A stretch of 64,000 bases of DNA from Actinomycetota bacterium (GCA_035718185.1 DASTHN010000090.1:1227-65226); one strand, 5' to 3'; counted from the stretch's first letter, positions 16,709 to 31,052 are shown. Made by a program: numbers and translations. Notes: generated by a model from the sequence alone, not told the origin.

Positions 16709-17152
16709 TCACGGGACCAGCGGCCTACTCTCGAACGGGATCGAGAGCACCACGGTGGTGCGCGTCTGGACGGCGCCCATCTCCCGGAGACGTCGGATCA
16801 GGTCCTCGAGGCGTTCGGGGGTCCGCGCGCGCACCTTCAGGATGTAGTTCGCCTCTCCGGCGACGCTGTAGCAGTCCTCGACCTCGGGGAAGCTCTCGAC
16901 ACGCTCCGGCAGGTCGTCGGGCTGGCTCGGGTCGAGCGGCGTGACGGCGATCAGGGCGGTGACGTCCAAACCGAGCGCGTGCGGATCGAGCTCGGCGCGG
17001 TAAGCACGGATCACGCCCGCATGCTCGAGCTTGCGGACGCGCTCGTGGACGGAAGAGGGGGACAGGCCTGCGTGGCGGCCGATGTCCGCATAGGTCGCCC
17101 GGGCGTCCTCCTGCAGCGCCGCGAGGATCGCGAGGTCGCGCTCGTCCAGCAC
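16709..17152 (-). CDS. Lrp/AsnC family transcriptional regulator
   Basis: HTH plus RAM domain (VLDERDLAILAALQEDARATYADIGRHAGLSPSSVHERVRKLEHAGVIRAYRAEL...). GTG start at 17152 was chosen. The 208-aa ORF-track version has an R/P-rich, non-protein-like N-terminus. Confidence 0.75.
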   Translation of the reverse strand: MLDERDLAILAALQEDARATYADIGRHAGLSPSSVHERVRKLEHAGVIRAYRAELDPHALGLDVTALIAVTPLDPSQPDDLPERVESFPEVEDCYSVAGEANYILKVRARTPERLEDLIRRLREMGAVQTRTTVVLSIPFESRPLVP

Positions 17153-17288
17153 GGGGGCATCGTACCCCCGGCTCGGTCGGCGGAACGGCGAACCACCCGG
17201 CCGGCGGATTGTGGAGCGGGCTGGCGGCGTGCGAGCATCGGCGGGTCCGTCGCGGGCCCACCCTCCCTCGGGCCGGGGGAGGGGAGAG

Positions 17289-18011
17289 GTGCTCGAACGG
17301 CAGATCCGGCCGGTGCGGCTCGTGCCGGAGCCCAAGCCGGGCGGCGTCCGTGTGCTCGCGCACCTCGATCCGGTCGCGGCTGCGGGATATGCGGCGGCCG
17401 TCGCCCCGCTCGTGGAGGCGATCGAGTCCGCGCTGCTCCCGAACGTCGTCGCGAACCGGGTAGCCGAGGTCCGGACGCGGCCGCCGGCGATCCGCCTGGA
17501 GGCATGGGCGGGCGCACGCGGCCGGTTCCGGGTGCTCGTGGAGCATCTGGCCGCAACTGCCGGCGGGGCCCTCGTGACGGACGTGCGCGACTTCTACGGG
17601 TCCATCGCGCCACCGGTGCTCGCGCGAGCCCTGGACCGCGTCGGCTGTGGGGCGATGGACGTCCGGCGCGCCGTCGACGCCGTGCGACGGATGTCCGTTC
17701 ACGGCGTCCGGGGGCTGCCGATCGGGCCCGAGGCCTCGGCCGTGCTCGCCAACGCGGTGCTGGTCGCCGTCGACCGTGACCTGGCGTCCGCCGGGTTCCA
17801 ACACGTCCGTTGGGTGGACGACCTCGTCGTGTTCACACCGGATCCCGCGGGAGCCGGCGCGGCGCTCGAGGTGGTGACCCGAGCGCTCGCTCTGCTGCGT
17901 CTGCGACCCGCGCCGGAGAAGACCCGGGTGGTCGACGATGCCCGGTCGCTCGTCCTGGGGACGACGGTCGCCTCGGGTGCGCAGCCGCGCTCGGGTCGCG
18001 TCAGAGGGTAA
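17289..18011 (+). CDS. Reverse-transcriptase-like protein (RT motifs 1-7, no thumb/X domain), about 240 aa
   Basis: GTG 17289 is preceded by GGGGAGGGGAGAG. Motifs seen: RPVRLVPEPKPGGVRVLAHLDPV (RT1/2, IPK-GG-RxL type), TDVRDFYGSI (motif A), GLPIGPEASAVLANAVLVAVD (motif B'), VRWVDDLVVF (motif C with DD), LALLRLRPAPEKTRVV (motif 6), VLG (motif 7), then stop. Host-like GC3. Divergent from the Lrp gene and 12 nt upstream of the amidohydrolase ORF. Confidence 0.6.
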   Translation: MLERQIRPVRLVPEPKPGGVRVLAHLDPVAAAGYAAAVAPLVEAIESALLPNVVANRVAEVRTRPPAIRLEAWAGARGRFRVLVEHLAATAGGALVTDVRDFYGSIAPPVLARALDRVGCGAMDVRRAVDAVRRMSVHGVRGLPIGPEASAVLANAVLVAVDRDLASAGFQHVRWVDDLVVFTPDPAGAGAALEVVTRALALLRLRPAPEKTRVVDDARSLVLGTTVASGAQPRSGRVRG

Positions 18012-19855: not shown

Positions 19856-20206
19856 ATGGAAGACATCGAAGACACGCTGGACGACGACGAGCTCGAGGAG
19901 CCCGAGGAGGCCTCCGAGGACATCGGGGACGCCGAGCCCACGGCGCCGGCCGTGCGACCGGCCGGTTCGGAGGACGTGGAGTCCATCCAGGATCTCCTGG
20001 TGAAGCAGGAGGCCCGCGCGGAGGAGGAAGAGGACGCCGAGGAATCGGTGCTCACCCTGACCCGCGACGAGCTCCGCGACGAATCGATGGCGGTGAAGGT
20101 GGTGCCGCCGCAGGCGAACGAGTTCACATGCCGCAACTGCTACCTGGTGAAGCATCGGAGCCAGCTGAAGGACAAGGCGAAGATGCTCTGCCGGGACTGC
20201 GCCTGA
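19856..20206 (+). CDS. Highly acidic small protein with C-terminal CxxC-x(n)-CxxC zinc ribbon (DUF4193-like)
   Basis: MEDIEDTLDDDELEEPEEASEDIGD...EFTCRNCYLVKHRSQLKDKAKMLCRDCA. This composition and C-terminus are typical of a conserved actinobacterial family. The ORF-track start at 19772 is probably too far upstream. Confidence 0.6.
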   Translation: MEDIEDTLDDDELEEPEEASEDIGDAEPTAPAVRPAGSEDVESIQDLLVKQEARAEEEEDAEESVLTLTRDELRDESMAVKVVPPQANEFTCRNCYLVKHRSQLKDKAKMLCRDCA

Positions 20207-22437
20207 GGCCGAACCCACCCGGACCCGCCGTTGCGCTGCTGATCGCCGCGTCGAGCGGTGCGCTCCTGTCGCTGTCCCTGCCGCCGGTCGATGCCGGATG
20301 GGTGGCGTTCCTCGCGCCGATCCCGTTCCTGTGGCTCGTGCGCGATGCTCGTCCGCTCCGGGGGCTCGGGCTCGGCCTGGCCTTCGGTGTGGCGTACTTC
20401 GGGCTCGTCCTGTACTGGATCCTGCTGTTCGGCGAGCTCGGGTGGACAGCGCTCGTCCTGGTCTCGGCGTGCTTCACCGGGGTCTTCGGGCTCCTCGCGC
20501 CAGTGCTGTGGCGCGAGGAGCATCCGGTCGCCTCTGTCTTGGCGCTGGCGTCGCTGTGGACGGTCCTCGAGGCTGCCCGCGGAGCTTGGCCGCTCGGTGG
20601 GTTCGCGTGGGGGCAACTCGGGAGCACGCAGACCGGGAACCCGGCGCTGCTGCGGCTCGCGTCGGTGACCGGCGTGTGGGGCATCTCGTTCGTGGTGATC
20701 GCCGTCGCCGGCCTGCTGCTCCTCGCCCTCGAGCGGGGGAGTGAGGCGCCCGCGCGGACCATCGCCTTGATGGGGGTCTGCATCGCCCTGGTGCTCGCCC
20801 CAGGCCTGCTCCCGCTGCCGGCGGCCGAGGGGCAGGCCATCGATGTGGCGGCGATCCAGGTGGACGTCCGCCAGGCGGAGCACCTAAGCCGCGACGCCGA
20901 GGACATCGCGGTCGCCCGGATGAACATCGACCTGCACACCCGGCTGGCCAACGATCCACCCGACCTCGCCGTCTGGGGTGAGGGGTCGCTCGATCCGGGG
21001 GCGTCCTCTGATCCGGCGACGATGCAGGAGGTGAGCTCGGCCGTTGCGGCGGTCGGCGCGCCGACGCTCGCCGGCGCGGTGCTCGACGATCCGGACGGCA
21101 GCCAGCACACCAGCGTGCTGCTGTTCGACGGGACCGGCGCGACGGTAGACCGGTACGACAAGGTGGTGCTGGTGCCGTTCGGCGAGTACGTGCCGTTCCG
21201 GGACAGGCTCGAGTGGATCGACGCGATCGACCAGGTTCCGGTCGACCGGGTGCCGGGGGAGACCCCCCATACCGTCTCGGTATCCGGACTGCCGGCGTTC
21301 GGGACCCCGATCTGCTACGAGAACAGCTTCCCGCGCGTGGAGCGAGACATGGCCCGCCGGGGAGCCACGTTCTTCGTCCTCACGACGAACAACGCCTCGT
21401 ACGGCATGACGGCCGCCTCCCGGCAGCACGTGCTGATGAGCCGGCTGCGCGCGGTCGAGACCGGGCGCTGGGTCGTCCACGCGGCGGTCTCCGGGATCAG
21501 CGCGATCGTGGACCCCCAGGGCGACGTGGTTGCCCACACCGAGCTGTTCGAGCCCGAGATCACGCGTACGCGGATCAGGGCCTCTCGGGCGACGACCATG
21601 TACGTCCGGCTGGGGGACTGGCTCGTGTGGGTCTGCCTGGCGGGGGTACTGGCGATGTTCGCGGTGCCACGTTCTCGCCGGGGCCCTGGACGTTCGGTCG
21701 AGGGCCTTGCCGATGCACCCCGCACGCTGGTCGTCCTGCCCACCTACAACGAGCGGGTCACGATCGGCGAGGTGCTCGACGGGCTCCTCGTCCTGGACGG
21801 GTCCATCCACATGCTGGTGGTCGACGACGGCTCGCCGGACGGCACGGGCGAGCTGGTCGCCCAGCGAGCAGCATCCGAACCGCGCGTCCGGCTCCTCGAA
21901 CGGGACGCGAAGAGGGGTCTGGCCAGCGCCTACCTCGAGGGCTTCCGACTCGCGCTCGAGGAGGGGTACGACCTGGTGGTGGAGATGGACTCGGACCTGT
22001 CCCACCTACCCGAGCAGCTTCCAGGGCTGCTGGAGGCCGTTCGCTCGCATCACCTGGTGGTCGGCAGCCGGTACGTGCCGGGGGGCTCGGTCACGAACTG
22101 GAGCCGGGCGCGCCTGGCGCTCTCGCGCGGCGGGAACCTGTATGCGCGCCTGTGCCTCGGCTTCCCGCTGCACGACGCGACGAGCGGCTTCCGCGTCTAC
22201 CGCCGCGCCCTGCTGCAGCGGCTGATCGCCCGCCCGTTCCGCTCCGATGGGTACGGCTTCCAGGTGGAGCTCGCGTACCGGGCGTGGCGCGAGGGCTTCG
22301 ACGTCGGCGAGGTTCCCATCACGTTCCGCGAGCGCGAGCACGGGCATTCCAAGATCTCGCGCCGCATCGTCGTCGAGGCGCTCTGGCTGGTGACGGTCTG
22401 GGGCCTCGGGGCCCGCCTCCGTGCCTCGGTGAGCTGA
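20128..22437 (+). CDS. ppm1: Two-domain fusion: apolipoprotein N-acyltransferase (Lnt, CN-hydrolase) plus polyprenol-phosphate mannose synthase (Ppm1, GT2)
   Basis: 769 aa. N-terminal multi-TM Lnt domain with the CN-hydrolase region (ICYENSFP). C-terminal GT2 domain (VVLPTYNE...VVDDGSPDGT...DSDLSH), as in mycobacterial Ppm1. The only standard start is ATG 20128, which overlaps the preceding gene by 79 nt. Confidence 0.8.
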   Translation: MPQLLPGEASEPAEGQGEDALPGLRLRPNPPGPAVALLIAASSGALLSLSLPPVDAGWVAFLAPIPFLWLVRDARPLRGLGLGLAFGVAYFGLVLYWILLFGELGWTALVLVSACFTGVFGLLAPVLWREEHPVASVLALASLWTVLEAARGAWPLGGFAWGQLGSTQTGNPALLRLASVTGVWGISFVVIAVAGLLLLALERGSEAPARTIALMGVCIALVLAPGLLPLPAAEGQAIDVAAIQVDVRQAEHLSRDAEDIAVARMNIDLHTRLANDPPDLAVWGEGSLDPGASSDPATMQEVSSAVAAVGAPTLAGAVLDDPDGSQHTSVLLFDGTGATVDRYDKVVLVPFGEYVPFRDRLEWIDAIDQVPVDRVPGETPHTVSVSGLPAFGTPICYENSFPRVERDMARRGATFFVLTTNNASYGMTAASRQHVLMSRLRAVETGRWVVHAAVSGISAIVDPQGDVVAHTELFEPEITRTRIRASRATTMYVRLGDWLVWVCLAGVLAMFAVPRSRRGPGRSVEGLADAPRTLVVLPTYNERVTIGEVLDGLLVLDGSIHMLVVDDGSPDGTGELVAQRAASEPRVRLLERDAKRGLASAYLEGFRLALEEGYDLVVEMDSDLSHLPEQLPGLLEAVRSHHLVVGSRYVPGGSVTNWSRARLALSRGGNLYARLCLGFPLHDATSGFRVYRRALLQRLIARPFRSDGYGFQVELAYRAWREGFDVGEVPITFREREHGHSKISRRIVVEALWLVTVWGLGARLRASVS

Positions 22438-22525
22438 GGCCTCAGGGGCTTGGCGGCCCGCTACGAACCGCCCATACCGCACATTATGGAAAGTTACGAT
22501 TGCGCGATGAGGCGACAGGACATGA

Positions 22526-22540
22526 GGTAGGCCGCCTACC
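22526..22540. promoter_or_regulatory. Perfect 15-bp palindrome GGTAGGCCGCCTACC (candidate operator) next to an AT-rich patch
   Basis: Read directly. Located in the 307-nt intergenic region upstream of the DUF11 surface protein, 40 nt downstream of the unusually AT-rich stretch ACATTATGGAAAGTTACGATTG. Confidence 0.4.
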
Positions 22541-22673
22541 CTCCCCCCCTGTCGGACGTCTGGGGTTGCTGTCGTCCTACGCTGCTGCGTAAAGTCCTGG
22601 TGAGCCCGCTTAGTTCGAAAGTCGCATGGGAACCCTTGGACCTTCGACGGATGGACTAGGGGAAGGCACGGCG

Positions 22674-22723
22674 TACCCTGGGGATCGGAGGGACATCCTG
22701 TCCCCCGTTGCGTCGTCAGGGTA
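22674..22723 (+). promoter_or_regulatory. Nested hairpins in the 5' leader of the surface-protein gene
   Basis: Outer stem TACCCTG/CAGGGTA encloses an inner hairpin GGGACA-TCC-TGTCCC (22690-22704). It lies 8 nt upstream of the strong SD AAGGAGGA and ATG 22745. Confidence 0.4.
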
Positions 22724-22744
22724 TCGCCCGAAGGAGGAGGGACC

Positions 22745-25700
22745 ATGAGCGGTTCGCGCAGGAATGGCCGGCGGCTGAGGAGGGCGGGAGCCACCTTCTC
22801 GCTGATCGGCCTGGTGATGACCGTGTTCCTCGCGATCGGCCAGGTCGGCCTCATCGCGGCGAACGCCGATGGCTGGTCCGACCGGTCGGGCGCTGGCTCC
22901 GCGTCCGCCGAGAGCGGACGAGGTGACGGGTTCACCGTCAAGGCCTCGGACGCCGTGTCCGAGAAGAGCTCCACCGCGAAGGGCGCGGTCGCGGCGCCCC
23001 TCGAGGCGGCCCGCGCTGTGGACGTCGGGGACATCGAGCTCGACTGGATCGCGGCGGGCCCGTACACGTACAACCACACGACCCTCGCCGGCACCGGTCC
23101 CGGCCTCCCCGAGTACGACGGCCGCGTGATCGACAAGTCGACCGGCGTGTTCGAGTCGCTGGAGGCGAGCGACTTCAACTGCAACGACAAGGTCGTCTAC
23201 TTCCTCGCGATCGAGATCGCGGACAACCCCGAGATCGACGCTCCGTCGACGATCTCCGTCGACCTGTCGTTCGACAACGAGGACGGCGTCGGGTTCCGCA
23301 CGTTCGACAGCCCGGCGGCGTTCCTGAACACGGACGACGCGGCGTACGACGGGGATGCCACGCTGACGGGGATCACGACCAACGCCCCGATCGCCGGCAA
23401 CCCCCCGCCCGGGAACCTGGAGATCTCGTTCGACGTCAACGACGTGGAACGCGGCGAGTTCATCGTCGTCCAGGTCGTCCCGATCCTGAAGTGCGGCGGT
23501 GACGGCGCGCCGAACGGCAACCTGCAGGCCCGCCTCGACTCGATGAAGATCGGGAACCAGAACGTCCCCGGCTCGGGCACGCAGACGATCCCGCTGAAGT
23601 CGGCTCGGCTGCTGCTCGAGCCCGACCTCACGATCGTGAAGAGCGGCCCGAGCGAGGTCGGGTTCGGCGAGACGGTGACGTATGAGGTCACGGTCGACAA
23701 CATCGGCTCCGGGCCGACGACGGACGACGTGATCATCACCGACTCCGTGACGGCCGAGCTGTCGAACGTCGCCGCGACGTACTCTCTGAACGGCGGCGCG
23801 GACCAGGCCTGTGCCGTCAACGGCAACGACGTCACGTGCAACGTCGGCATCCTTGACGCCGGCGACACGGTCGTCGTGACGATCACGGCAGAGGCGCCGA
23901 GCGACAGCTGCCCGACCGTCGTCAACACGGCGTCGCTGTCGATCGGAGGCGCGACGCAGGACAGCAACTCGGTCGAGACGGTCGTCACGGGCTGCGCGCC
24001 GGACCTGTCGATCGACAAGGAGGCCGTGAACGAGGCCGGGGCGCCGATCACCGAGGTCTCCCCCGGTGATAGCTTCAGCTACGTCATCACCCTCACGAAC
24101 GACGGCAACGAGAACGCCACCGGCGTCGTGGTCACCGATGACCTCGACGACACGCTCACGATCGACGCCGCCTCGTTCGCCATCGGCGCCGCGTCGGGCG
24201 CCTGTGACATCGACGGGACGGACAACTCGATCCGCTGTCCGCAGGACCCGGGCACCGAGACCCTGCAGCCCGGCGAGTCGATGGTTGTCACGGTCGACGT
24301 CACCACCGCGGCCGACGTCTGCGGTGCGCTCATCAACTCCGCGCACGTGGACTGGGCCGAGGACGGCTCGGGCGAGGGCCTGGACTCCGGCCTGGTCACC
24401 GTCGACGTGACCGGCTGCGCGCCGGAGCTGACGATCGCCAAGACCGGCCCGGCGACCGTGCCGTTCGGTGGTCAGGTGACGTACGAGATCACGGTCGAGA
24501 ACACCGGCAACGCGCCGACGGCGAACGCCGTGGTCATCACCGACAGCGTCCCAGCCGAGCTCGACAACGTGGCTGCGACCTACTCGTTCAACGGCGGGGC
24601 CGATCAGGCCTGCAGCGTCGTCGGCAACGACGTGAGCTGCAACGTCGGGGTCATGGATCCGGGCGACTCGGTCGTCGTGACCATCACGGCCGACGCGCCG
24701 AGCGACAGCTGCCCGAGCTTCACGAACCAGGCGTTCGTGGGTGATCTGGGCAGCAACGAGGTCGACACCGACGTGACCGGCTGCGCCGCGGATCTCGAGC
24801 TGCACAAGACCGGCCCGGCCACGGCCGAGGTCGGTGGCCTGGTGACCTACACGGTCACCGTGGAGAACAACGGCAACGCCGCCACGGCCGATCCGGTGGT
24901 CGTGACCGACGCCGTCGACTCGGACCTCTCCGGTGTGACCGCGTCGTTCTCGCTGAACGGCGGCCCGGACCAGGCCTGTGACGTGGTCGGCAACGACGTC
25001 AGCTGCGACCTGGGCATCCTGCAGTCCGGCGACAGCGCCGAGATCACCATCTCGGGCACGACGCCCACGGACATCTGCCCGGAGATCGTGAACCAGGCCT
25101 TCATCGGCGACCTGGGCAGCGAGATCGTCACGACGACGATCGACTGCCCGCCGCCCGGGATCGACCTGGTCAAGGATGGCGACGACATGGCGCACGTGGG
25201 TGACACCGTCACCTACACGTTCGACGTGAGCCTGACGCCGGACAGCCTGCCGCTCGAGAACGTCACGCTGACCGACCCGATCTGCGACACGGGCACGATC
25301 AGCGGACCCACGGGCGATGACGGCAACGCGATCCTCGAGCAGGGTGAGACGTGGAGCTACACCTGCACCCACGTCGTGACCGAGAGCGACCCCGATCCGC
25401 TGCCGAACACCGCTCACGTCTCGGGCTGGTTCGGCCAGACGGAGGTCACGGACGAGGACTCGCACGAGGTCGACATCCTCCACCCGGCGATCGAGATCGT
25501 GAAGCGCGCTCGTCCGCAGTCGGGCTCGCCCGGCGAGGTGATCACGTACCACTACACGATCACGAACATCGGTGACGTGGTCCTGCACGACATCACGGTG
25601 GACGACGACGTGATCGGTCACGTCTGCGACATCGCGGAGCTGCAGCCGAACGAGAGCACGGAGTGCACGAAGGACTTCAAGCTCCCGTCGGACGGCACGA

Positions 25701-25948
25701 TCAAGGTCACGAACGTCGGAACCGCCGAGGGTGAGGACCCGCTCGGCGAGACGGTGAAGGACGACGACACCCAGACGGTGGACGTGATCCTGGGGCAGAC
25801 CATCACGAAGACGCCCCCGGGTCCGATCGCCTTCACCGGCACGTCGTCGGTCATCCCGCTCGGCGCCCTGCTGCTGGTCTTCGTGACCGCGGGCACGGCC
25901 CTGCTGTGGGTGGGCCGCCGGCGCGGTCGCCAGACCTCGACGGAGTAA
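22745..25948 (+). CDS. Large cell-wall-anchored surface protein with repeated DUF11-type domains and a C-terminal LAXTG-like (IAFTG) sorting signal
   Basis: 1067 aa. N-terminal signal peptide. At least five repeats of the pattern DLxIxKTGP...VTYxITVxNxGNAxT...VVITDxVxxxL...C. C-terminus is IAFTG, then a TM helix, then RRRGRQ, which is the architecture of a sortase substrate (class E sortases use LAXTG). Confidence 0.8.
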   Translation: MSGSRRNGRRLRRAGATFSLIGLVMTVFLAIGQVGLIAANADGWSDRSGAGSASAESGRGDGFTVKASDAVSEKSSTAKGAVAAPLEAARAVDVGDIELDWIAAGPYTYNHTTLAGTGPGLPEYDGRVIDKSTGVFESLEASDFNCNDKVVYFLAIEIADNPEIDAPSTISVDLSFDNEDGVGFRTFDSPAAFLNTDDAAYDGDATLTGITTNAPIAGNPPPGNLEISFDVNDVERGEFIVVQVVPILKCGGDGAPNGNLQARLDSMKIGNQNVPGSGTQTIPLKSARLLLEPDLTIVKSGPSEVGFGETVTYEVTVDNIGSGPTTDDVIITDSVTAELSNVAATYSLNGGADQACAVNGNDVTCNVGILDAGDTVVVTITAEAPSDSCPTVVNTASLSIGGATQDSNSVETVVTGCAPDLSIDKEAVNEAGAPITEVSPGDSFSYVITLTNDGNENATGVVVTDDLDDTLTIDAASFAIGAASGACDIDGTDNSIRCPQDPGTETLQPGESMVVTVDVTTAADVCGALINSAHVDWAEDGSGEGLDSGLVTVDVTGCAPELTIAKTGPATVPFGGQVTYEITVENTGNAPTANAVVITDSVPAELDNVAATYSFNGGADQACSVVGNDVSCNVGVMDPGDSVVVTITADAPSDSCPSFTNQAFVGDLGSNEVDTDVTGCAADLELHKTGPATAEVGGLVTYTVTVENNGNAATADPVVVTDAVDSDLSGVTASFSLNGGPDQACDVVGNDVSCDLGILQSGDSAEITISGTTPTDICPEIVNQAFIGDLGSEIVTTTIDCPPPGIDLVKDGDDMAHVGDTVTYTFDVSLTPDSLPLENVTLTDPICDTGTISGPTGDDGNAILEQGETWSYTCTHVVTESDPDPLPNTAHVSGWFGQTEVTDEDSHEVDILHPAIEIVKRARPQSGSPGEVITYHYTITNIGDVVLHDITVDDDVIGHVCDIAELQPNESTECTKDFKLPSDGTIKVTNVGTAEGEDPLGETVKDDDTQTVDVILGQTITKTPPGPIAFTGTSSVIPLGALLLVFVTAGTALLWVGRRRGRQTSTE
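23630..25090 (+). repeat. Intragenic tandem repeats of about 360 nt (DUF11 domain units), about 75% nucleotide identity
   Basis: Segments near 23640-23920, 24440-24720 and 24800-25080 align visibly at the DNA level (for example ...cacggtcgagaacaccggcaacgcgccgacggcgaacgccgtggtcatcaccgac...). Confidence 0.6.
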
Positions 25949-25976: not shown

Positions 25977-26016
25977 GAGGTCCCGGGTCGGATGACCCGG
26001 GACCTCTCGCTTTGGG
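25977..26016 (+). terminator. Intrinsic-terminator-like hairpin between convergent genes
   Basis: GAGGTCCCGGGTC-ggat-GACCCGGGACCTC (13-bp perfect stem) followed by TCGCTTTGGG. Located 29 nt after the surface-protein stop. Confidence 0.55.
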
Positions 26017-26041
26017 TGGAGGCCCGCCGGGCGGTGCCGAG

Positions 26042-26515
26042 CTACCCGTAGAAGATGACGGTGATCCACAGGGCGTCGTCCTCGCGGACGATGCCCACGG
26101 CCATGTGGTCGAACGACTTGCGCAGGATGTTCTCGCGGTGGAGCTTGCTGGCCATGAACGCCTCTTCAAGGCTCTTGAGCGAGCCTCCCACCCCGACGTT
26201 CTCGCCGCCGATCGACCAGTTCACGTCCCCGAGGGCCCTCCGGAGCTGTGCCTCCGTCGAGTGGAAGATGTAGCCCTTCCTGGCCATCGCCGCGCTGTGC
26301 TCCTTCGCGAACCTCGAGACGCGGGTTTCGAACCCGAGGGCCCGGCGATCGTGCTCCCGCCGGTCGTCGTTCGTGAGGTTCACCATCTGGACGCGGCGAC
26401 CCGTCCGCTGGCGCGCGTCCGCCCGGTCGGGGACGGTGCTGACCACCAGGAAACCCGCCATGAGCAGGGCGATCGACGCCGCGAGCGTCCCTCGGCCGAT
26501 TCGGAGACGTGCCAT
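26042..26515 (-). CDS. Secreted CAP/SCP/PR-1-like (YkwD-type) domain protein
   Basis: Signal/TM segment (GTLAASIALLMAGFLVVSTV), then HSAAMARKGYIFHS...GENVG...MASKLHRENIL, as in CAP domains. The internal ATG (MARLRIG) was chosen; the ORF track extends to 26596. Confidence 0.65.
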   Translation of the reverse strand: MARLRIGRGTLAASIALLMAGFLVVSTVPDRADARQRTGRRVQMVNLTNDDRREHDRRALGFETRVSRFAKEHSAAMARKGYIFHSTEAQLRRALGDVNWSIGGENVGVGGSLKSLEEAFMASKLHRENILRKSFDHMAVGIVREDDALWITVIFYG

Positions 26516-26749
26516 CTCGAGCCTCCCGACTCCGGGGTCCCGGTTGGGACTCGAGCCCGAGGCCCGGGTCCTTCGGCGGCCCGGCCACCTCCCCACGGAG
26601 GTCCGGCGCTTTGCGCCCCGCCGTCGCCAGCGGTTCGCCTTTTTCGGGACCGACCCTTTGTGCCTGTCACCTCCGTATCGGACGGGGCCAGCGCGGCCTT
26701 GAGGCCGAGATGGTCAGGAATGACTAGGCACCCGATCGGGGCCGGATGG

Positions 26750-28231
26750 CTACCAGCGAAGCTTCAGGTGACGGGCCGCTCGGGCCTCGTCCAGGCGTCG
26801 CACGGGTGTGGTGAGGGGCGCCTCGTGGAGCAGGTCGGGATCGCTGGCCGCCTCGTCGGAGGCCTGGAGCAGGGCCTCGGCGAACGCATCGAGCGTCTCC
26901 TTCGTCTCGGTCTCCGTGGGCTCGACCATCATCGCCTCCTCCACCACGAGCGGGAAATACACGGTCGAGGGGTGGAACCCGAGGTCGATCACCCGCTTCG
27001 CCACGTCCATCGCACGCAGACCGGTCCGCTCGCGCAGCAGCGCGGCCGTCGAGACGAACTCGTGCATCGGCCGGCCGTCCGGGTACGCGAGCGGGAACGC
27101 CCCCTCGACGCGATGGGCGAGGTAGTTGGCGTTCAGGACCGCCCGCTCCGCGACCTCGGTGAGACCGTCGCGGCCGTGCAGGAAGACGTACGCGTAGGCG
27201 CGAACCAGGACCCCGATGTTCCCGTGGAACCCGTGCATCCGGCCGATCGATCGCGGGCGGTCGGAGTCGAGATGGAAGGTCCCGGCGGCCTCGTCGCGTT
27301 CGACGATCGGGACCGGCAGGTACGGCACCAGCTCCTCGGTGACCCCGACGGGACCGGCTCCCGGCCCTCCCCCGCCATGGGGCGTGGCGAACGTCTTGTG
27401 CGTGTTGATGTGGACGATGTCGAAGCCCATGTCGCCCGGACGGCAGCGACCCAGGATCGCGTTCAGGTTCGCACCGTCGTAGTAGACGAGCCCACCGACG
27501 CCGTGCACGATGCTTGCGATCTCCTGGATGTCCTCCTCGAACAGGCCGAGCGTGTTCGGGTTCGTGAGCATCAGTCCGGCCACGTTCTCGTCCACGAGCT
27601 TCTCGAGCGCCGAGACATCTAGCGCGCCCCGTGCGTCGCTCGGGACATGGAGCGCTTCGTAGCCCGCCATCCGCACGCTCGCCGGGTTCGTGCCGTGCGC
27701 GGCGTCCGGGATGACCACCTTCGTCCGGGGGTCGCCGAGCTCGGTGTGATGACGGCGCATGATGAGCAGTCCCGTGAGCTCGCCGCACGCGCCCGCCGGG
27801 GGCTGCAGGGTGGCGCGGGCCATCCCGGTGATCTCGCAGAGGGCACGCTCCAAACGCCACAGGAGCTCCAGCGTGCCCTGGGCGGTGCGCTCCGGCTGGA
27901 GGGGGTGGACGCGCGCGAACCCCGGGAGAGCCGCCACGGCCTCGGCCACCTTCGGGTTGTACTTCATCGAGCACGACCCGAGCGGGTACACGCCGGTGTC
28001 CACCCCGTAGTTGAGCTGCGACAGACGTGTGAAGTGGGTGACGAGATCGCGCTCGGCCACCTCGGGCAGCGCGGGCGGTCGTGCGCGAGCGTGCTCGGCG
28101 GGCACCTCGGCCGCGGGGACGTCGAGTTCGGGCAGGCTCCATGCGCGCCGTCCCGGCCGCGACAGGGCCTTCAACGTGCCGAGCCCTGGCGGACCCTGCC
28201 GACGTACCGGCGCGCCGGTGGCCTGGGTCAC
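26750..28231 (-). CDS. gcvPB: Glycine dehydrogenase (decarboxylating) subunit 2, GcvPB
   Basis: 493 aa. HFTRLSQLNYGVDTGVYPLGSCSMKYNPK and the PLP-lysine region NTHKTF. 4-nt overlap with gcvPA. Confidence 0.85.
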   Translation of the reverse strand: MTQATGAPVRRQGPPGLGTLKALSRPGRRAWSLPELDVPAAEVPAEHARARPPALPEVAERDLVTHFTRLSQLNYGVDTGVYPLGSCSMKYNPKVAEAVAALPGFARVHPLQPERTAQGTLELLWRLERALCEITGMARATLQPPAGACGELTGLLIMRRHHTELGDPRTKVVIPDAAHGTNPASVRMAGYEALHVPSDARGALDVSALEKLVDENVAGLMLTNPNTLGLFEEDIQEIASIVHGVGGLVYYDGANLNAILGRCRPGDMGFDIVHINTHKTFATPHGGGGPGAGPVGVTEELVPYLPVPIVERDEAAGTFHLDSDRPRSIGRMHGFHGNIGVLVRAYAYVFLHGRDGLTEVAERAVLNANYLAHRVEGAFPLAYPDGRPMHEFVSTAALLRERTGLRAMDVAKRVIDLGFHPSTVYFPLVVEEAMMVEPTETETKETLDAFAEALLQASDEAASDPDLLHEAPLTTPVRRLDEARAARHLKLRW

Positions 28232-30566: not shown

Positions 30567-31052
30567 ATGCACGTGCTCCGGAACCGCAAGGTCCGTCACG
30601 CGGCGCTCGCGGGCTCGCTCGCCGTCGCCCTGCTGACCACAGGTGTCGCTGCCGCCCCGGCCGCCGAGGCCGGCTCGCTCCGGACCAAGGTCCTGCACGC
30701 GATCAACCGCGTCCGAGCGAACCACGACCTCAACACCCTCAGCCTCAACCGGCCGCTCTCGGACGATGCGAGGGCCCACACCCGGAAGATGATCCGGCGC
30801 GGGAAGCTGTTCGACCCCAGGAACCTGGCCCAGCTGCTCGAGCCCTACAACTGGGACGTCATCGGCGCCGACGTCGTGGGCTGCCACTCCACCGTCCAGA
30901 AGATCATGAGGCAGTGGATGAGCGAGGGGCTCCACCGGGACATCATCCTGCACCCGGCACTCGAGAAGGCCGGGATCGGGGCGATCGCCACGTCGGGCAA
31001 GTCGGAGTGCGGCCGTGACAAGGTCTGGGTCACGGCGATCATGTACGGCTAG
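30567..31052 (+). CDS. Secreted CAP/SCP/PR-1-like domain protein (paralog of 26042-26515)
   Basis: Signal peptide (AALAGSLAVALLTTGVAAAPAAEA), then HAINRVRANH...GHS...HRDIIL...VWVTAIMYG. Same domain organisation and C-terminus (AIMYG versus VIFYG) as the other CAP protein. Divergent from the MerR gene. Confidence 0.65.
   Translation: MHVLRNRKVRHAALAGSLAVALLTTGVAAAPAAEAGSLRTKVLHAINRVRANHDLNTLSLNRPLSDDARAHTRKMIRRGKLFDPRNLAQLLEPYNWDVIGADVVGCHSTVQKIMRQWMSEGLHRDIILHPALEKAGIGAIATSGKSECGRDKVWVTAIMYG

Follow-up and report, generated by a model that had tools for sequence, protein, structure and literature searches.

The 307-nt intergenic spacer at positions 22438-22744 of a 64,000-nt stretch from the genome of an uncultured Actinomycetota bacterium (GCA_035718185.1, DASTHN010000090.1:1227-65226; hereafter the window) is located between the stop codon of an lnt-ppm1 fusion gene, which ends at 22437, and the start codon (ATG at 22745) of a gene encoding a surface protein. 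It is very probably composed of two unrelated functional units that lie end to end, namely the dif site of the chromosome (22467-22494), which marks the replication terminus, and the promoter and leader of the surface-protein gene (22566-22744). A sequence-only reading of the same DNA had interpreted the spacer as a single regulated leader. All strings that it listed were found where it had placed them (an AT-rich patch at 22481-22502, a palindrome, promoter hexamers, and the arms of nested stems), and the promoter and the inner hairpin are upheld by comparison with related genomes, but the AT-rich patch, the palindrome, and the outer stem are not part of such a leader. The observation is therefore partly confirmed and its interpretation partly supported.

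The comparison comprises 80 loci from uncultured Actinomycetota genomes (numbered with the prefix L), which were anchored on the Ppm1 fusion protein (54-85% protein identity). A copy of dif is present in 77 of these loci, 54 have enough flanking sequence for an analysis of GC skew, 45 distinct loci were used in promoter and folding tests, and 22 in the analysis of a conserved block (block 2) in front of the surface-protein gene. The closest relative (L001) shares 87% identity with the window across the spacer; beyond this nearest relative, blastn conservation of the spacer is confined to two short blocks.

There is ample evidence for the identity of the dif site. The 28-mer ACCGCCCATAC-CGCACA-TTATGGAAAGT on the + strand has an 11-6-11 layout, with a left arm (22467-22477), a central region (CGCACA, 22478-22483), and a right arm (22484-22494), and its arms form an imperfect dyad, in which CCATAC and TTATGG are complementary except for one base. 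By analogy with Escherichia coli, the left arm represents the XerC side and the right arm the XerD side. Exactly one copy, always on the strand of ppm1, is present in 77 of the 80 loci, with the three exceptions located at contig ends; in most loci, it follows the stop codon of ppm1 at a distance of 3-110 nt. The 28-mer is also unique in the 64-kb window, where a position weight matrix built from the 77 relatives scores it at 35.7 bits; the next-best matches reach 0.6 bits (the same site on the opposite strand) and -3.3 bits.

The right arm is better conserved than the left, with positions 18-20 and 22 invariant and a T at position 21 in 73 of the 77 loci. The consensus of the lineage, AACGCCGATAATGTACATTATGTAAAGT, is identical to the dif site proposed for Frankia alni (CACGCCGATAATGCACATTATGTCAAGT; PMC3025954) at 25 of 28 positions and to that of E. 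coli (GGTGCGCATAATGTATATTATGTTAAAT; PMC2731167) at 20 of 28 positions; the corresponding values for the site in the window are 21 and 17. In 12 loci, less than 150 nt (minimum, 14 nt) separate the stop codons of ppm1 and gcvPB, which converge on the 28-mer, and no gene is available there for which it could act as promoter or operator. The AT-rich patch, which had been assigned to the promoter, instead belongs to this conserved chromosomal site: the first 14 of its 22 nt (22481-22494) fall inside dif. A coding sequence running through dif (ATGGAAAGT...) was considered and rejected, as it meets a stop after 3-14 codons in several loci. In one of the related records (L012, OY969934.1; 3,450,992 bp), a dif-like site is located at about 1.99 Mb, 58% along the record and roughly opposite its start.

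The location of dif coincides with a reversal of strand polarity. In the window, the cumulative G-C curve has its maximum at 23058, with a change-point near 23000 (permutation p < 1/5000), and the GC skew is +0.028 to the left of dif and -0.017 to its right. The skew is higher on the left in 51 of the 54 loci tested (Wilcoxon p = 7e-10), and a control split placed 3 kb upstream showed no flip. Coding-like open reading frames (ORFs) follow the same pattern, with 5700 amino acids (aa) on the + strand and 841 aa on the - strand to the left of dif versus 2342 aa and 8672 aa, respectively, to its right.

The same reversal is displayed by the heptamer GGGGGAG, which occurs nine times on the + strand and never on the - strand to the left of dif, but once on the + strand and 19 times on the - strand to its right (Fisher p = 1e-6). 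When the related loci are pooled, 535 copies point towards dif versus 52 that point away, and copies pointing towards dif form the majority in 77 of 77 loci. Since a pooled ranking of 8-mers by polarity proved to be confounded by homologous genes, counts restricted to the window and counts inside genes on the opposite strand were used instead. Within + strand genes to the right of dif, the ratio in related loci is 25:0 in favor of copies pointing towards dif, so polarity goes with the replichore rather than with the strand of the gene. Such behavior has been described for FtsK-orienting sequences (PMC13277299), and GGGGGAG is a candidate for the FtsK-orienting motif of this lineage. By comparison, the E. 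coli motif GGGNAGGG displays only a weak polarity in the window (7:2 and 2:4).

The conservation of the 28-mer, its copy number and orientation, and each of the polarity reversals are direct observations, from which we infer how Xer recombinases and FtsK would act at this site. Septal FtsK would pump DNA in the direction set by the GGGGGAG motifs that converge on dif; the first such motif of the right arm would be the copy on the - strand at 22541-22547 (CTCCCCC on the + strand), which points at dif. XerC and XerD would then bind the two 11-bp arms and exchange strands over the 6-bp CGCACA, thereby resolving chromosome dimers.

The second unit of the spacer begins with a promoter of the sigma-A type on the + strand (22566-22595), which consists of the -35 hexamer TTGCTG (22566-22571), an 18-nt spacer, and the -10 hexamer TAAAGT (22590-22595), and would start transcription near 22602. 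The pattern TTGnnn-N17-19-TAnnnT is found at the equivalent place in 25 of the 45 distinct loci versus 0.8% of shuffled sequences, and this conservation lends support to the promoter that the sequence-only reading had recognized in the two hexamers. Among the relatives (upstream sequence of about 55 loci compared), it mostly reads TTGCCC-N17-TACACT. A generic scan for sigma-70 promoters and terminators listed nothing for the spacer.

Downstream of this promoter lies block 2, an element of about 70 nt that is conserved in some 24 genome loci and 34 metagenome contigs. It invariably follows dif on the right, at a distance of 93-1100 nt, and precedes the start codon of a surface-protein gene by 102-113 nt. 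It has invariant columns across the 22 loci analyzed and is unique in the window, where its sequence-conserved part occupies positions 22610-22659 of the + strand. Here, block 2 reads TTAG-TT-CGAAAG-N19-CCTTCGACGGATGGACTAG-N14-TACCCT, with TTAG at 22610-22613, CGAAAG at 22616-22621, CCTTCG at 22641-22646, and ACGGATGGACTAG at 22647-22659. The inverted repeat CGAAAG-N19-CCTTCG is followed by GATGGACTAG and a second -10-like hexamer, TACCCT (22674-22679, + strand), which lies within the 5' arm of the outer stem and 17 nt after a weak -35-like ATGGAC (22651-22656) that is part of ACGGATGGACTAG.

The second hexamer (TAnnnT) is highly constrained. Its A2 and T6 are invariant in all 22 loci, T1 is present in 21 of them, and the hexamer keeps a constant distance of 14-15 nt from the preceding GTAG and of about 65-70 nt from the start codon that follows. 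Both the hexamer and block 2 are present also in loci that lack the upstream promoter. On these grounds, block 2 is read as a candidate regulator-binding region combined with a second, tandem promoter: the region CGAAAG-N19-CCTTCG would bind a regulator, and the promoter at TACCCT would start transcription near 22686. The possibility that block 2 is an element shared by an entire regulon was rejected, as a scan of metagenomes matched almost exclusively the same dif-adjacent locus. Also rejected was a mini-ORF, ATG-NNN-TAG (22651-22659), which is preceded by neither a Shine-Dalgarno sequence nor a leaderless promoter and whose pattern fits a weak -35 hexamer.

The 5' untranslated region contains a hairpin at 22686-22707 (+ strand), whose core GGGACA-TCC-TGTCCC (22690-22704) is extended by CGG/CCG and which is kept in most relatives. 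The arms GGGAC/GUCCC are retained in about 38 aligned relatives (43 rows), and RNAalifold with ribosum scoring recovers the hairpin. Divergent loci maintain it with other sequences, such as GGGCG/CGCCC and GGGGAA/CUCCCC. The loop comprises about 3-5 nt in most loci and an apparent 13 nt, as judged by eye, in L030. Such variation in loop length and arm spacing argues for an element that acts as RNA and against a binding site for a dimeric DNA-binding protein. In comparison with shuffled sequences, the folding energy of the hairpin has a mean z of -0.83 (p = 4.5e-4, obtained on related sequences).

The Shine-Dalgarno sequence, GGAGGAGGG (22733-22741, + strand), ends 3 nt before the ATG and takes part in no pairing in the minimum-energy fold. 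A transcript that begins near 22686 would carry the GGGACA/TGTCCC hairpin at its 5' end and leave the Shine-Dalgarno sequence free. By analogy with known mRNA leaders, a hairpin at or near the 5' end would most likely protect the mRNA from decay that depends on the 5' end, rather than sense a signal.

Several further features of the leader were noted. The 8-mer GGAGGGAC occurs twice, once in the 5' arm of the hairpin (22687-22694) and once in the Shine-Dalgarno region (22736-22743); the C-rich 3' arm could in principle pair with either copy, but the local hairpin would be expected to prevail, and nothing observed pointed to a switch. One clade (L009, L020, L025, and many metagenome loci, such as L081-L118) possesses an extra GUUG...CAAC hairpin just before the Shine-Dalgarno sequence, which takes the form GUUGUC/GACAAC in its sister clade and does not occur in the window. 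The clade of L009, L020, and L025 also has a mini-hairpin, CCCG-loop-CGGG, between GTAG and TAnnnT, which is likewise absent from the window.

An alternative explanation would deny that the 28-mer is dif and consider it an operator for a transcription factor, a bidirectional terminator between converging genes, or the attachment site of an integrative mobile element exploiting Xer recombination (IMEX) that carries the surface-protein gene. The 28-mer is indeed an imperfect palindrome beside a gene whose content varies among relatives, and integrating elements are known to target dif sites (PMC2731167). However, an AT-rich 6-bp stem would make a poor terminator in a genome with a GC content of about 70%, the 28-mer closely resembles published dif sites, and three independent polarity signals reverse exactly at its position. 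There is also no second or degenerate copy flanking the surface-protein gene in the window or the related loci, and none of the loci contains two copies. This explanation is very improbable. Equally improbable is the sequence-only reading, in which the AT-rich patch and the palindrome would be operators of a regulated promoter and the nested hairpin would control translation as a riboswitch or thermosensor. The strings exist, the hexamers are conserved, and the nested hairpin has a stable local fold (-38.1 kcal/mol, z = -3.5), but the whole spacer folds no better than its shuffles (z = -0.07), and the AT-rich patch, which lies between converging gene ends in 12 loci, behaves as dif. The palindrome GGTAGGCcGCCTACC, a 7-1-7 inverted repeat of 15 bp (22526-22540), is of chance-level quality and is not conserved: an equally good palindrome is found in 22% of dinucleotide shuffles of the spacer, and the window holds 198 of them, or 0.95 per 307 nt. 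In L001, the palindrome reads TGTAGGCCATCTTCC, with three uncompensated changes in the 3' arm, and in L076, the segment is deleted, which speaks against an operator and suggests that it is most likely a chance or lineage-specific feature. Of the nested hairpins, both are present in the window and the inner one is kept in most relatives, but the outer stem, formed by TACCCTG (22674-22680) and CAGGGTA (22717-22723) on the + strand, is favorable in this window only; the z of its duplex is -2.3 here and averages -0.10 over 22 loci, and the stem is weakened in L001 and L076. Neither the palindrome nor the outer stem is thus conserved upstream of orthologous genes. The unpaired Shine-Dalgarno sequence, which is not sequestered in the predicted fold and is preceded by the very stable (-38 kcal/mol) hairpin, also argues against a thermosensor. 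A search of the region 21900-23300 against Rfam at E <= 10 returned only three chance hits, all outside the spacer.

A more serious, albeit still unlikely, competitor is the view that the region from TTAG to the hairpins (22610-22728) is a cis-regulatory RNA, i.e., part of a riboswitch-like leader of 143 nt that would be transcribed from the upstream promoter and bind a ligand or protein; on this view, TAnnnT is a feature of the RNA and there is no second promoter. Conservation of the upstream promoter means that block 2 is probably transcribed, which is why it was tested as an RNA element. In its favor, one clade has a small hairpin made up of the 14-15 nt that separate GTAG from TAnnnT, a closing helix is possible in some loci (UUAGGA/UCCUAG) and in others (UUAGGG/CCCUAG), and a few loci offer pairings of the type GGCCTAC/GTAGGCC. 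However, RNAalifold found no consensus structure on either 22 or 45 sequences, an unbiased helix scan across the relatives returned just a trivial 5-bp stack, and the arms of the inverted repeat (CGAAAG/CCTTCG) are invariant, without covariation, around an interior whose pairing is not under selection (mean z = +0.17). The closing helix pairs in about half of the loci and not in the window, where the spacer between GTAG and TAnnnT also fails to form a hairpin (0.0 kcal/mol); there is no match in Rfam at the above threshold, and the block is found also in loci without the upstream promoter. A leader with a three-way junction, composed of the closing helix, the spacer mini-hairpin, the interior of the repeat, and the GGCCTAC/GTAGGCC helix, was rejected because none of these parts is present family-wide or in the window. 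Covarying stems, for which the sequence-only reading had suggested a comparison with relatives, are absent across the 45 loci, and there is no sign of a riboswitch. The lack of a consensus fold, of covariation, and of selected pairing indicates that block 2 is conserved at the level of the DNA sequence.

Several points nevertheless weigh against the interpretation of the spacer as dif followed by a promoter and leader. The dif site in the window has a C at position 11, where an A is near-invariant elsewhere, and the change is common only to the closest relatives. For the source genome, the evidence from copy number and skew extends over just 64 kb. GC skew is in part confounded with gene strand, and the pooled motif counts include homologous genes many times over. 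In the second unit, the promoter function of the second TAnnnT is inferred despite a poor -35 hexamer (ATGGAC), the choice of the promoter-like element in use likewise depends on predicted start positions, and the factor that would bind CGAAAG/CCTTCG is putative. The energy advantage of the hairpin is small (mean z = -0.83), its arms hardly covary in a sequence-based alignment, and its stabilizing role is an analogy.

The gene downstream of the spacer (22745-25948, + strand) encodes a surface protein of 1067 aa, as had been proposed from the sequence, although its product is large rather than giant. An N-terminal signal peptide is followed by DUF11/DUF7507 repeats and an isopeptide-type domain, and the C-terminus carries a sorting signal that consists of IAFTG, a hydrophobic segment, and RRRGR. 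The gene reads away from dif, opposite to the prevailing gene direction of its replichore. Among the relatives, as little as 14 nt or more than 5 kb may separate dif from gcvPB; if filled, this segment contains at least one surface-protein gene, and some genomes lack the gene altogether. The genes share a homologous promoter, and their products share a signal peptide (M-R-G-S-x-R-R...) and xAFTG, whereas the middles differ (228-1154 aa) and consist of DUF11 repeats or other domains. The sorting signal of class E sortases is LAxTG (PMC5148588). The surface proteins resemble the substrates of these sortases in their signal peptide and in the succession of IAFTG, hydrophobic helix, and basic tail, with L, T, V, or I preceding AFTG among the relatives, but the motif of the protein in the window begins with I instead of L. 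The neighborhood examined yielded no sortase gene.

The lineage-wide presence of a variable, apparently sortase-anchored surface-protein gene with conserved ends directly beside dif is mildly unusual. The dif-adjacent position itself might drive the turnover of the surface-protein genes, e.g., by elevated recombination at the terminus together with FtsK/Xer activity, but we consider this improbable. The conserved ends of the gene would then serve as homology arms for swaps of surface-protein cassettes, and the locus, if this were true, would be a terminus-linked hotspot for surface variation.

The genes on either side of dif are conserved among the relatives. The left neighbor and last gene of the left replichore is the lnt-ppm1 fusion (20128-22437, + strand), which combines an apolipoprotein N-acyltransferase with a glycosyltransferase family 2 (GT2) domain of the polyprenol-phosphate-mannose synthase type (Pfam LNT_N, CN_hydrolase, and Glycos_transf_2; TIGR00546 lnt). 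The right neighbor is gcvPB, which encodes subunit 2 of glycine dehydrogenase (26750-28231, - strand; Pfam GcvP2_C and GDC-P); in 12 related loci, dif and the stop codon of this gene are less than 150 nt apart. An ORF at 26012-27622 (+ strand) was rejected as a conserved neighbor; it yields tblastn matches but belongs to no family and is an antisense shadow of gcvPB. Long ORFs in a genome with 70% GC are often such shadows. Two small proteins with a CAP (cysteine-rich secretory protein) domain, encoded at 26042-26596 (- strand) and 30567-31052 (+ strand), flank the gcvP genes near the terminus.

Farther upstream, a 266-aa ORF (17211-18011, + strand) matches reverse transcriptases (Pfam RVT_1, 6e-10; PADLOC Drt8, 2e-29; RT_UG23). 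It spans approximately the first half of profiles with a length of about 490 aa and ends just before an amidohydrolase gene; it may represent a truncated reverse transcriptase of the defense type. Its start overlaps an ORF on the - strand (16709-17335) that resembles, by eye, a regulator of the AsnC/Lrp family.

The resolution of one apparent regulatory leader into two unrelated elements avoids a false annotation as riboswitch or operator. The analysis also assigns the replication terminus and the site of dimer resolution to this 64-kb fragment of an uncultured actinomycetotal genome. The dif consensus of the lineage and the candidate motif GGGGGAG are useful for the orientation of contigs and for checking the assembly of metagenome-assembled genomes. 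A modest lead for finding a regulator comes from the promoter block that is conserved upstream of the variable surface-protein gene.

All the kinds of element encountered here, i.e., dif sites, polar motifs, tandem promoters, and 5' hairpins, are well known. Like other dif sites, the site in the window has 28 bp in an 11-6-11 layout with an imperfect dyad and with a TTATG core and a right arm that are both more conserved than the left arm; it is single-copy in the sequence at hand and located at the switch in GC skew between converging replichores. It differs from them in its origin from an uncultured member of Actinomycetota, the C at position 11 of the left arm, and the tight linkage to the stop codon of ppm1. 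The motif GGGGGAG shares with the FtsK orienting polar sequence (KOPS) of E. coli, GGGNAGGG, and with architecture-imparting polar sequences that it is short, G-rich, and strand-polar and that it converges on dif from both sides independently of gene strand, but it is a heptamer of different sequence, and its recognition by FtsK is putative.

Tandem sigma-A promoters with TTGnnn at -35 and TAnnnT at -10 are common before highly expressed genes of surface and S-layer proteins. The upstream hexamer pair, which is kept in relatives, and the second TAnnnT, with its invariant A2 and T6 and its fixed distance from the start codon, agree with actinobacterial promoters of this type; by contrast, the -35 hexamer of the second element is poor, and an unusually conserved block (CGAAGG-N18-19-CCTTCGnCnGATGnnGTAG) precedes it. 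The arms of the inner hairpin (GGGAC/GTCCC) resemble the half-sites of DosR/DevR-type boxes, which are GGGAC...GTCCC palindromes, but this is a resemblance only, and the spacing of the arms varies from 4 to 7 nt among relatives (13 nt in one locus). The closest parallel to the hairpin is found among the stabilizing stem-loops at the 5' terminus of bacterial mRNAs, such as the ompA leader. Although the 5' end is predicted here from sequence, the two have in common a GC-rich hairpin near the presumed 5' end, an exposed Shine-Dalgarno sequence, and a gene that encodes an abundant protein of the cell envelope.

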